Source of the DNA: a virus
Taxonomy: Duplodnaviria > Heunggongvirae > Uroviricota > Caudoviricetes
Virus record (IMG/VR): IMGVR_UViG_2529292921_000014
DNA length: 8,189 nucleotides
Direction: 5' to 3' (one strand)
In this document: positions 971-4,687 of the stretch, one piece after another
Position numbering within the stretch: position 1 is the first letter of the stretch
Layout of the letters: each line of letters begins with the position of its first letter
Translations under genes and position numbers: made by a program
Notes under the pieces: model-generated
The model's database searches: none
What the model was told of the DNA's origin: nothing
The model's input: the letters and a program-made list of their open reading frames with translations, nothing else

Positions 971-3900
971 ATGGGCAAAGGAAGCAGTAAGGGGCATACC
1001 CCGCGCGAAGCGAAGGACAACCTGAAGTCCACGCAACTGCTGAGTGTGATTGATGCCATCAGCGAAGGGCCGATTGACGGTCCGGTGGATGGATTAAAAA
1101 GCGTGCTGCTGAACAGTACGCCGGTGCTGGACAGTGAGGGGAATACCAATATCTCCGGTGTCACGGTGGTGTTCCGGGCCGGTGAGCAGGAGCAGACTCC
1201 GCCGGAGGGATTTGAATCCTCCGGCTCCGAGACGGTGCTGGGTACGGAAGTGAAATACGACACGCCGATCACCCGGACCATCACGTCGGCAAACATTGAC
1301 CGACTGCGTTTTACCTTCGGTGTGCAGGCACTGGTGGAAACCACCTCAAAGGGGGACAGGAATCCGTCGGAAGTCCGCCTGCTGGTTCAGATACAACGTA
1401 ACGGTGGCTGGGTGACGGAAAAAGACATCACCATTAAAGGCAAAACCACCTCACAGTATCTGGCATCGGTGGTGGTGGGTAACCTGCCGCCGCGCCCGTT
1501 CAATATCCGGATGCGCAGGATGACGCCGGACAGCACCACAGACCAGCTGCAGAACAAAACGCTCTGGTCGTCATACACCGAAATCATCGATGTGAAACAG
1601 TGCTACCCGAACACGGCACTGGTCGGCGTACAGGTGGATTCGGAGCAGTTCGGCAGCCAGCAGGTGAGCCGTAATTATCATCTTCGCGGGCGCATTCTGC
1701 AGGTGCCGTCGAACTATAACCCGCAGACGCGACAATACAGCGGTATCTGGGACGGAACGTTAAAACCGGCATACAGCAACAACATGGCCTGGTGTCTGTG
1801 GGATATGCTTACCCATCCGCGCTACGGCATGGGGAAACGTCTTGGTGCGGCGGATGTGGATAAATGGGCGCTGTATGTCATCGGCCAGTACTGCGACCAG
1901 TCAGTGCCGGACGGCTTTGGCGGCACGGAGCCGCGCATCACCTGTAATGCGTACCTGACCACACAGCGCAAGGCGTGGGATGTGCTCAGTGATTTCTGCT
2001 CGGCGATGCGCTGTATGCCGGTATGGAACGGGCAAACGCTGACGTTCGTGCAGGACCGACCGTCGGATAAGGTGTGGACCTATAACCGCAGTAATGTGGT
2101 GATGCCGGATGATGGCGCGCCGTTCCGCTACAGCTTCAGCGCCCTGAAGGACCGCCATAATGCCGTTGAGGTGAACTGGATTGACCCGAACAACGGCTGG
2201 GAGACGGCAACAGAGCTTGTGGAGGACACGCAGGCCATTGCCCGTTACGGTCGTAACGTCACGAAGATGGATGCCTTTGGTCTGTACCAGTCGGGGGCAG
2301 GCACACCGCGCCGGGCTGTGGCTGATTAAAACAGAACTGCTGGAAACGCAGACCGTGGACTTCAGCGTGGGTGCTGAAGGGCTTCGCCATGTACCGGGCG
2401 ATGCCATTGAAATCTGTGATGATGACTATGCCGGTATCAGCATCGGCGGGCGCGTGCTGGCGGTAAACAGCCAGACCCGGACGCTGACGCTCGACCGTGA
2501 AATCACGCTGCCATCCTCCGGTACCACGCTGATAAGCCAGGTTGACGGAAGTGGCAATCCGGTCAGCGTGGAGGTCCAGTCCGTCACCGACGGCGTGAAG
2601 GTAAAAGTGAGCCGTGTTCCTGACGGTGTTGCTGAATACAGCGTATGGGGGCTGAAGCTGCCGACGCTGCGCCAGCGACTGTTCCGCTGCGTGAGTATCC
2701 GTGAGAACGACGACGGCACGTATGCCATCACCGCCGTGCAGCATGTGCCGGAAAAAGAGGCCATCGTGGATAACGGGGCGCACTTTGACGGCGAACAGAG
2801 TGGCACGGTGAACGGTGTCACGCCGCCAGCAGTGCAGCACCTGACCGCAGAAGTCACCGCAGACAGCGGGGAATACCAGGTGCTGGCGCGCTGGGACACG
2901 CCGAAGGTGGTGAAGGGGGGAGCTTTATGCTTCGCCTGACCGTGGCAGCGGATGACGGCAGTGAGCGGCTGGTCAGCACGGCCCGGACGACGGAAACCAC
3001 ATACCGCTTCAGGCAGCTGGCGTTGGGGCGTTACACGCTGACAGTCCGGGCGGTAAATGCCCGGGGACAGCAGGGCGATCCGGCGTCGGTATCGTTCCGG
3101 ATTGCCGCACCGGCAGCGCCGTCACAGATTGAGCTGACGCCGGGCTATTTTCAGATAACCGCCACGCCGCATCTTGCGGTTTATGATCCGACGGTACAGT
3201 TTGAATTCTGGTTTTCTGAAACGAAGATTTCAGATGTCTCACAGGTGGACAAATCTGCCCGCTATCTTGGTACGGCACTGTACTGGGTAGCCTCCGGCCA
3301 GAATATTAAGCCGGGCCATGATTATTACTTTTATGTTCGCAGTGTGAATACCGTTGGCAAATCGGCATTCGTGGAGGCTGTCGGCCAGCCGGGTAATAAT
3401 CCTGAAGAGTATCTCAATTTTTTTGAAGGGAAAATAAACAGCACCCTGCTGGGGCAGGAGCTGAATGATCGTATTAATGCCTCTGCATTGCGCAGTGAAG
3501 TTGAGCAACTGGAGGATGAGGTCAATCAGCGACTGGAGAGTGATATTGCCGGGGTGACCCAAAAAATCGGGGAAACTGAAAACAGCCTCACGCAGCTGGT
3601 TGCTAAAAAAAATGATGAGCAGTCACTGGCCATATCCCAGGTGAGTCAGAAAGTGGACAACGTCAGTAGCGAACTCACGCAAACGGTCAGTCAGAGTAAT
3701 GAGGAGAATGCACGCCAGATTGCGCAGGTTCGTCAGTATGTGGATGAAAAAAGCAGTGAAATCATCTCGACGACAGACAAAAAACTGGGCGAGCAGGAAG
3801 CAACAATCCAGCAGATACAAAAGGTTCAGACAGACACCAGTAATAACCTGAACAGTATGTGGGCCGTGAAACTGCAGCAGATGCAGGATGGTCGCCTTTA

Positions 3901-4687
3901 CATTGCGGGTATCGGTGCCGGTATTGAGAATACCCCTGACGGTATGCAGAGTCAGGTGCTGCTGGCGGCAGACAGGATTGCGTTCATTAATCCGGAGAAC
4001 GGTAACACCACTCCAGCACTGGTCACGCAGGGGGGACAGACGTTTATCAATGAAGCGCTGATTAAGACCCTTATTGCTCCCACAATTACCAGCGGTGGCA
4101 GTCCTCCGGTATTTTCCCTGACATCAGACGGAAAGCTGACCGCTAAAAATGCGGATATCAGTGGCAGTGTGAATGCGAACGCCGGGACGCTCAACAATGT
4201 CACGGTAAATGAAAACTGTACGATTAAGGGCATGCTGGAGGCGACTCAGGTCAGAGGTGACTTCGTTAAAGCTGTATCCAAATCATTTCCGAAACAGGCT
4301 GGTACATGGGGTAACACGGAAACACCAAACGGGACGGTTACAGTCACCATCAGCGATGATCATAACTTTGACCGTCAAATCATTATTCCGCCCATTATCT
4401 TTAACGGAATAGCGTATAGCTATCCGGGAAGTGGTAATAACCCGGGAGGTACAAGATACACGGGTTATGGTTTTGAAGTTCGCAAAAACGGTGTATTAAT
4501 CGCATCCAGAGAAACTAAAGGGGCCATTCCCGGTAGTTACAGTGCAGTTATTGATATGCCTAGTGGTGGTGGTAGCGTCACTCTGGAGTTTAAGATTTTC
4601 CAGAAAGGCAATCAGTGGGCAGGCAATATCACCGACTGTACGGTGATTGTGACCAAAAAAGCCGCTTCCGGCATCAGTATTCGTTGA
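971..4687 (+). pseudogene. J: Host specificity / tip attachment protein J (central tail fibre), lambda J-like, with the reading frame interrupted twice (+1 near 2280, -1 in the G6 run at 2915-2920); as written it would terminate at 2329
   Basis: Three head-to-tail overlapping + strand ORFs in the track: 971-2329 (frame 2), 2181-2939 (frame 3), 2927-4687 (frame 2). The first starts MGKGSSKGHTPREAKDNLKSTQLLSVIDAISEGPIDGP, which is the lambda J N-terminus. The middle ORF from ...CTSRGQAHRAGLWLIKTELLETQTVDFSVGAEGLRHVPGD onward, and the third from [27 protein letters not shown] onward, continue J-like sequence. Total span is 3717 nt, about 1238 codons if the frame were continuous. A GGAG RBS precedes the ATG at 971. 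Confidence 0.85.

Follow-up and report, generated by a model that had tools for sequence, protein, structure and literature searches.

The J gene of the window (the whole 8,189-nt stretch analysed) is the lambda-type tail-tip, or host-recognition, gene of a decaying lambda-like prophage of Escherichia coli DEC1B. The region 3400-4687 most probably combines a long shaft built of 29-residue units, a beta-prism and a phage 434-type tip that would bind OmpC if the gene were intact; in the window the gene is dead. J is thus a known sort of host-range mosaic with one under-described feature, the long shaft, and it is inactive in DEC1B.

Identity and domain order of J

J, the trimeric protein of the tail tip and central fibre, is a classic host-range determinant whose C-terminus is swapped among lambdoid phages. 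The following features were located in and around the gene:

27-365: C-terminus of K, NlpC/P60
392-910: Lambda_tail_I
971-4687, plus strand: gene J (tail-tip / central tail fibre), a pseudogene broken by frameshifts into three ORFs, 1238 aa after conceptual repair
2281, plus strand: extra T, +1 frameshift, absent from all J genes compared
2799-3112, plus strand: first FNIII domain (FNIII-1, Pfam Ig_J), interrupted by the frameshift in the G run, matched by Pfam on ORF2 aa 173-212 and ORF3 aa 2-62
2915-2920, plus strand: G6 run, -1 frameshift; intact alleles have G7 (A25) or GGGGTG
3116-3424, plus strand: second FNIII domain (FNIII-2, Pfam Ig_J_second, E = 1.3e-38, ORF3 aa 64-166), aligned to lambda gpJ by PDB phmmer
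3407-3856, plus strand: expanded alpha-helical shaft, with about five 29-residue units in tandem (3407-3841) and a continuous helix in the AlphaFold2 model (3446-3856)
3605-3612, plus strand: A8 run within the shaft module, at which relatives have a frameshift; DEC2A-type products begin shortly after it, at MDNVSS
3803-4189, plus strand: beta-prism of the central straight fibre (Pfam Phage_Tail_Tip, E = 1.6e-30), 54-81% amino acid identity to lambda
4091-4210, plus strand: conserved block where prism and tip meet; its DNA is 89-94% identical to that of lambda, 434, cdtI and 2015C, with flanks at about 50-60%
4274-4684, plus strand: receptor-binding domain (RBD; Pfam Ig_GpJ_C, E = 2.9e-26), phage 434/cdtI type; stop codon at 4685-4687
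from 4757: Ail/Lom (lom)

The J product matched the Pfam families FNIII-A_GpJ, Phage-tail_3, Ig_J, Ig_J_second, Phage_Tail_Tip and Ig_GpJ_C above their curated cut-offs, and a phmmer search of the PDB aligned it with 8iyk (E = 1e-116). Along the protein, Ig_J and Ig_J_second are followed by a 126-aa gap and then by Phage_Tail_Tip and Ig_GpJ_C. This order corresponds to the build of TipJ/gpJ: hub domains, two FNIII/Ig domains, tail-tip prism and C-terminal Ig-like RBD. Lambda gpJ (NP_040600; 8IYK, 8XCK, 8XCJ) belongs to the same protein family and has the same domain order. The gene also has the expected neighbours in the tail module, the order being K, I, J, lom. Four minus-strand ORFs that overlap the 3400-4687 region (3239-3562, 3623-3820, 3952-4233 and 4496-5035) had no Pfam match above cut-off and were treated as spurious.

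Mosaic relationship to lambda J

The original prediction described J as nearly identical to lambda J up to about position 3390 and divergent beyond it. Alignment bore this out: identity to lambda J is 98-99% over aa 1-650 and 87% over aa 651-806 (nt 2921-3388). It falls to 42% over aa 807-825, after which aa 826-950 lie opposite 101 gap columns in lambda J; it then rises to 54% (aa 951-1040) and 81% (aa 1041-1088). The last 150 aa are 40% identical, in an alignment with 17 gap columns. A lambda-like C-terminus, which would have overturned the prediction, is thereby dismissed. The peptides quoted for the expanded segment and the tip are both encoded exactly in the plus-strand ORF 2927-4687.

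The stepwise changes in identity support the proposal that the C-terminal half of J is a recombinational mosaic, as read from these alignments. The conserved block at 4091-4210 is likely to be a recombination junction between a shaft/prism module and a tip module. Beyond the two FNIII domains J carries three exchangeable modules: the shaft, the beta-prism fibre and the RBD.

Comparison with J of phage 434 (UMO75362.1; h434 host range, OmpC) showed the same domain order, with the N-terminal 650 aa 98-100% identical to J of the window. The 434 protein is shorter (1137 aa), with a shaft of lambda length (45-aa spacer vs 146), and the N-terminal part of its prism is only 53% identical. In phage cdtI (BAF63351; 1165 aa) and in most O157/Stx-prophage J genes the N-terminal DNA matches that of the window at 99-100% as far as about nt 2530. 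Their 73-aa spacer is intermediate, 28 aa longer than that of lambda and 73 aa shorter than that of the window.

In E. coli A25, gpJ (WP_201488479.1) is an intact version of the same 1238-aa allele with the long shaft and the 434-type tip; it differs from the conceptually repaired window protein by 23 aa. Over 3380-4687 the gpJ DNA of A25 and of EPEC E2348/69 is 99.6-99.8% identical to the window. The existence of the intact A25 allele rules out that the extra length is a frame artefact.

The expanded helical shaft

The shaft follows FNIII-2 and precedes the beta-prism, at the place of the alpha-helical shaft ('AHS') of lambda gpJ. The spacer comprises 146 aa in J of the window and 45 aa in lambda, and is thus 101 aa longer. 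No Pfam domain was found across ORF3 aa 167-292, and in the PDB alignments the matches to lambda gpJ flank the insert and leave it uncovered. Position and helicity both agree with the AHS of gpJ (Ge and Wang 2024), the helicity being that of a monomer AlphaFold2 model.

Comparison of the shaft with itself revealed the 29-residue repeat, with a self-match score of 119 at offset 29 against a maximum of 52 in shuffled sequences. The lambda shaft has no 29-residue array of this length. Tandem Repeats Finder detected no repeat at the DNA level in 3300-4000; the units are old, since they are visible at the protein level only. A protein word-index search with the shaft alone matched only short E. coli fragments.

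The segment had been predicted to be an expanded, heptad-rich coiled coil. The expansion stood, but 'heptad-rich' was inexact: the hydrophobic period is about 3.63 residues (peak at 3.65), with a power of 105.8 at 3.625 against 6.8 at 3.5, the period of a canonical (7/2) heptad coiled coil. The spectral peak was reached by 3 of 500 shuffles. A naive score of heptad a/d positions could not tell the shaft and the beta domains apart, and the hydrophobic power spectrum was used instead.

AlphaFold2 modelled the shaft as one uninterrupted helix of 137 residues (query aa 83-219, pLDDT 62-74). The fibre is trimeric but was modelled as a monomer, at a mean pLDDT of 58, and a single long helix is the default outcome; a parallel three-helix bundle is therefore not proven, nor is the added length of 15 nm estimated below. 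It is conceivable, if unlikely, that the extra 101 residues form antiparallel hairpins or a flexible hinge and do not lengthen the fibre. The modest pLDDT of the monomer helix would allow this, and glycines within the units (IAGV, KIGE, KLGE) could permit breaks. The regular repeat and the single 3.63-residue hydrophobic phase, both running across the whole shaft, speak for a continuous helix, as do the lack of proline, the low glycine content (2.9%) and the uninterrupted helix of the model. If a parallel continuous trimer forms, the extension would add about 15 nm of reach, setting the tip that much further from the tail.

The receptor-binding tip

The original prediction of a tip different from that of lambda was correct with respect to divergence. 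The 40% identity does not reflect an unrelated domain, the tip matching the lambda RBD family Ig_GpJ_C; nor is it the close identity expected of a LamB-binding tip such as the lambda RBD. The last 150 aa are, by contrast, 95% identical to J of phage 434 (eight of 150 residues differ) and 97% identical to J of cdtI, with no indels. At the DNA level 4211-4687 is 88-98% identical to the 434-type tip, and tip DNA is 96-98% identical to that of many phage J genes. In the AlphaFold2 model the tip is a beta sandwich (block-mean pLDDT 59-88). The best Foldseek matches were gpJ central-fibre structures (9wca, 8xck, 8xcj, 9wcb); the query was the low-confidence whole model, for which only the gpJ matches are meaningful.

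OmpC is the receptor of phage 434 and also of lambda equipped with the 434 J (PMC3509688, PMC11101478). Judged by tip identity, an intact copy of the window J, such as A25 gpJ, would bind OmpC and not LamB. The prediction of a receptor other than LamB thus holds for the tip type, but it assumed a working gene. In a virion with an intact J, the trimer with its 434-type Ig-like tip would engage the porin, the binding signal would pass up the prism to the shaft, and unfolding of the shaft would free the FNIII domains and open the tail tip, following the shaft-unfolding trigger model for lambda (PMC11101478).

With low probability, the tip binds a receptor other than OmpC despite its likeness to 434 J, for example OmpF or only certain OmpC alleles. 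The eight substitutions relative to 434 J could alter which porin or which allele is bound: in lambda J, one point mutation can be enough to shift receptor use toward OmpF (PMC11101478), and engineered OmpC-binding J tips differ in the OmpC alleles that they accept (PMC11338833). Against this stand the close, indel-free identity to both 434 J and cdtI J and the wide occurrence of the 434-type tip in phages plating on K-12 hosts (Ayreon, phi458, PhiR26_1). OmpC is the more probable receptor of an intact copy.

The engineered OmpC-binding gpJ chimeras A8 and 1A2 (PMC11338833) were considered as receptor evidence and set aside as other tip types. A8 resembles the tip of 2015C-4136CT1, and 1A2, in an OCR-degraded text, is closest to the PhiR49_2 type. 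As neither has the tip type of the window, they give no direct receptor evidence for it.

Frameshifts in J

J of the window is read not as one uninterrupted frame but as three plus-strand ORFs (971-2329, 2181-2939 and 2927-4687) separated by two indels, which were placed by alignment to the intact J of 2015C-4136CT1 and to E2348/69 and A25. Both lesions had escaped the original prediction, which implied an intact gene. Its length of 1238 codons, against 1132 in lambda, is valid as a span only: the +1 and -1 shifts cancel arithmetically, so that 971-4687 (3717 nt) equals 1238 codons plus a stop. The extra T at 2281 and the change from G7 to G6 at 2915-2920 break the frame, and translation from 971 ends at the stop codon 2327-2329; at most a 452-aa N-terminal fragment is made from the J start. 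J of the window is a pseudogene, whereas J of phage 434 is an intact gene in a live phage.

Among 8144 places compared across 4164 complete E. coli genomes, none matched the sequence with the extra T exactly (98.9% at best), and the 452-aa truncated product is recorded only for the contig of the window. The extra T is thus a private mutation or else an error in the draft sequence. The insertion is unique to one draft contig and could be such an error, in which case J has one real lesion and not two. An exact 90-nt match across the G6 site was found only in four independent assemblies of E2348/69, in which RefSeq annotates gpJ as 'frameshifted'. The E2348/69 gene is without the extra T at 2281 and has a further frameshift, the shortening of the A8 run at 3605-3612 to A7; in the window this run is intact. 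It is one of the A6-A8 runs correctly noted in the original prediction, the others being A6 runs at 3561-3566, 3747-3752 and 3779-3784.

These observations bear on whether both frameshifts could be draft-assembly errors, the real DEC1B genome making a working 1238-aa J. The uniqueness of the extra T and the location of the second lesion in a homopolymer run, a typical site of read errors, would fit such errors. The identical G6 in the four independently produced E2348/69 assemblies makes them very improbable, and database products from DEC1E and DEC1C likewise begin at Met 2927. Moreover, relatives carry additional lesions in J (A8 to A7; an IS inside J), and the adjoining lom is split by an IS66-family element. 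No complete genome sharing this lom::IS arrangement was recovered when the whole window was searched. That the 586-aa ORF 2927-4687 is expressed alone as a free fibre or tip protein with a new role, e.g. receptor masking, is scarcely credible: it has an ATG start and carries its own protein annotation in DEC1B and DEC1E, but this ATG encodes a Met inside J (in the intact allele, KGGSFMLRL), in the middle of FNIII-1, and the ORF is destroyed in relatives too.

Given the pseudogene, the G6 lesion common to E2348/69 and the split lom, the DEC1B prophage at present probably specifies no receptor use, and no host-range inference should be drawn for it from J. The label 'hypothetical protein' given to the 586-aa fragment is misleading.

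Shaft lengths and tip types among J genes

Long-shaft J proteins work in plaque-forming phages. J of PhiR49_2 and PhiR40_1 (PV340570, PV340560) has 1232 aa and the same 146-aa spacer as the window, with a homologous 29-residue array 74% identical to its shaft. The tip is of a different type, only 41% identical to that of the window, and among the tips compared is closest to the 1A2 chimera. PhiR40.1 has served as an infecting phage (PMC13190303).

Shaft spacers of the J genes fall into classes of 45, 73 and 146 aa, besides which there are rarer ones of greater length. These classes assort independently of the tip types, of which there are at least three; the 434-type tip is found in nature with each of the three shaft lengths. 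A speculative reading, of low probability, is that the shaft of lambda-type J may be a length-adjustable module, changing in steps of about 29 residues and recombining freely with tips, by which phages set the reach of the tip through O-antigen or capsule to the porin. Exchange of the J C-terminus is itself a routine finding. The literature searched contained no description of a long-shaft J or of fibre-length variation, nor of discrete shaft classes based on a 29-residue unit and freely combined with tips.

Since structural work assigns the shaft a role in relaying the receptor signal, the series of natural lengths could be used to test the proposal made for lambda, in which unfolding of the shaft passes on the signal for tail opening. 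It could also serve the engineering of lambda-based delivery particles that reach porins on smooth or capsulated strains.

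Gene organization and inactivation of J

The window is the entire contig AIEW01000008.1 (assembly GCA_000249075.2), assigned to Escherichia coli DEC1B through the accessions of two of its products. It covers the distal tail region of a lambda-like prophage:

27-365, C-terminus of K
392-910, gene I
971-4687 (+ strand), J, the tail-tip/central-fibre gene
4757-4943 and 7642-8062, lom, in two parts separated by an inserted IS
4944-7641, the IS66-family element interrupting lom (2698 bp), with ORFs at 4997-5338, 5338-5673, 5673-6020 and 6040-7611, the last encoding a 523-aa transposase

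An 8-bp target duplication, GGACACGC, flanks the element (4936-4943 and 7642-7649). For gene I, the longest ORF runs from 263 and shares ~100 nt with K; the recorded gene call begins at 392. A terminator-like hairpin (4706-4729, a 10-bp stem followed by a T run; one found, 0.3 expected from shuffles) lies downstream of the J stop (4687), ahead of the lom start (4757).

J is read not as one frame but as three ORFs: 971-2329, 2181-2939 and 2927-4687 (ORF3). Alignment with intact J genes revealed an additional T at 2281, and the G6 run at 2915-2920 is one G short of the G7 found in E. coli A25. The two lesions cancel, and thus the 3717-nt span equals the 1238 codons of the original prediction. 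This figure is right for the span only, as reading from the J start terminates at 2327-2329. The frameshifts had been overlooked in the prediction, which treated J as a working gene; to judge from its sequence, J is inactivated in the DEC1B genome.

Among the 5426 complete genomes searched, the only exact matches to the 90 nt spanning the G6 run were in four independent assemblies of E2348/69, and RefSeq flags the E2348/69 gpJ as frameshifted; the G6 lesion is thus genuine and has been passed down in the EPEC1 lineage. The 4164 complete genomes compared for the T at 2281 offered 8144 matching places, all of them lacking it, and the truncated 452-aa product of its frame is recorded on the DEC1B contig only; the T reflects a private mutation or, alternatively, an error in the draft. 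In the alignment the A8 run at 3605-3612, in the shaft module (the expanded segment described below), has shrunk to A7 in each of the four E2348/69 assemblies, a separate frameshift, and the DEC2A-type database products begin immediately past this run, at MDNVSS. The A+T-richer shaft module seems to be inactivated recurrently at its homopolymer runs.

A DEC1C product runs from the Met at 2927 into an IS66-family end located within J. It and two other records (P0314) end in ...NANAGTL followed by VTGSFKPSGLFPPALQK, the translation of the IS66-family left end (window 4944-4995), hence the same element also entered J in a sister lineage.

An intact allele and the mosaic structure of J

A gpJ of 3717 nt (WP_201488479.1) is annotated in E. 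coli A25, a strain from a monkey in Mexico; it is 99.8% identical to the window over 3380-4687 and differs at 23 of 1238 residues from repaired J, the conceptual protein with both frameshifts corrected. The additional length is therefore no frame artefact, and the allele of the window is already present in RefSeq as gpJ. Both peptides quoted in the prediction occur exactly in the + strand ORF 2927-4687. Its description of a mosaic C-terminus was correct: identity to lambda falls past residue 806, and the DNA map is likewise mosaic.

Repaired J compared with lambda J (residues; nt; identity)
1-650; 971-2920; 98-99%
651-806; 2921-3388; 87%
807-825; 3389-3445; 42%
826-950; 3446-3820; faces 101 gap columns in lambda
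951-1040; 3821-4090; 54%
1041-1088; 4091-4234; 81%
last 150; 4235-4684; 40%

DNA map of J (nt; identity)
971-3010; lambda-like, 91-100%
3371-3850; without counterpart in lambda and 434; 100% to 2015C-4136CT1 (2015C) and A25, 66-75% to PhiR49_2
3851-4090; 100% to 2015C, 61% to lambda
4091-4210; 89-94%, kept in nearly all
4211-4687; 434 88-98%, cdtI 95-99%; lambda, 2015C and PhiR49_2 ~50%

The conserved block 4091-4210 probably marks the crossover that joined the shaft/prism module to the tip module. The G+C content is 0.58-0.65 upstream of ~3150 (the N-terminal two thirds) and 0.45-0.53 downstream (shaft, prism, tip), a drop that fits a separate origin of the C-terminal modules. Substitutions cluster at 2400-2800 (31 differences from E2348/69) and at 3205-3310 (~30 differences from A25), the rest being nearly identical; these patches resemble the outcome of gene conversion between lambdoid J genes sharing a host.

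The expanded helical shaft

In ORF3 Pfam identified Ig_J_second (FNIII-2, residues 64-166) and Phage_Tail_Tip (residues 293-421), with zero matches between them. Solved lambda gpJ chains aligned to both flanks of the expanded segment, none across it. At this position lambda gpJ has an alpha-helical shaft (residues ~809-861), a three-helix bundle clamping the FNIII-2 domains; when the receptor-binding domain engages LamB, the shaft flips and partly refolds, the FNIII domains are freed and the tip is opened (PMC11101478).

The segment consists of 29-residue units repeated in tandem (ungapped self-match: best offset 29, score 119; offset 58, score 64; highest among 200 shuffles, 52). Its hydrophobic power spectrum has its maximum at 3.65 residues, a peak power reached by 3 of 500 shuffles, with a power of 106 at 3.625 (29/8) versus 7 at 3.5. 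The 3.63-3.65 period indicates an amphipathic, non-heptad helix, and the predicted 'heptad-rich coiled coil' is better described as a helical shaft of 29-residue repeats. Proline is absent and glycine makes up 2.9%. Tandem Repeats Finder detected no repeats in the shaft DNA, so the units must be old. An AlphaFold2 monomer model (alignment of 33 sequences, whole-model mean pLDDT 58) has a single unbroken helix at query residues 83-219 (nt 3446-3856, pLDDT 62-74). Given a parallel trimer helix, the 101 added residues, at 0.15 nm each, would make the shaft ~15 nm longer.

The receptor-binding tip

The last 136 residues belong to Pfam Ig_GpJ_C, the family of the lambda receptor-binding domain (E = 2.9e-26). 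AlphaFold2 modelled a beta sandwich (query residues 355-486, pLDDT block means 59-88), and the top Foldseek matches (9wca, 8xck, 8xcj, 9wcb) were gpJ central-fibre structures. The tip thus shares its fold family with lambda and is a distinct allele.

The tip is of the long-known 434 type, with 95% identity to 434 J (8 substitutions in 150 residues, no indels) and 97% to cdtI J; many phage J genes match its DNA at 96-98% identity. The suggestion of a non-LamB tip is sound. Phage 434 itself and lambda with 434 J use OmpC (PMC3509688, PMC11101478), so by homology OmpC is the receptor candidate with the best support, should the copy be intact. OmpC is likewise used by A8 and 1A2, lambda constructs with two further natural tip types (PMC11338833; PDB 9wcb); their tips differ in type from that of the window.

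Shaft length classes

The spacer from the end of FNIII-2 to the prism start was measured in 176 J homologues, a sample skewed toward the query.

Spacer classes (length; members; sequences of 176)
45 aa; lambda, 434; 20
73 aa; cdtI type; 113
146 aa; window, 2015C, PhiR49_2, PhiR40_1; 34
rare; 123, 206-244 and 410-432 aa

Shaft class and tip type assort independently: 434-type and PhiR49_2-type tips were found on 45, 73 and 146 spacers, and 2015C-type tips on 45 and 146. A megablast search of 5426 complete E. coli genomes found the long-shaft module at ≥90% identity in ~30; only five genomes (A25 and the four E2348/69 assemblies) combine it with the tip type of the window. PhiR49_2 and PhiR40_1 (J of 1232 aa each) are isolated phages grown on ECOR13, and PhiR40.1 served as an infecting phage in PMC13190303; a long-shaft J is therefore functional. 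The one feature for which no description was found in the literature searched is this shaft-length polymorphism of J in discrete, modular classes.

In a Shigella sonnei host specificity protein (P0035, an 845-aa J fragment) the medium shaft is duplicated internally together with the initial part of the prism: the stretch ...GYL.F.KG...MWAVK...GQ occurs twice, and the spacer is 214 aa. This duplication is a different route to a lengthened fibre.
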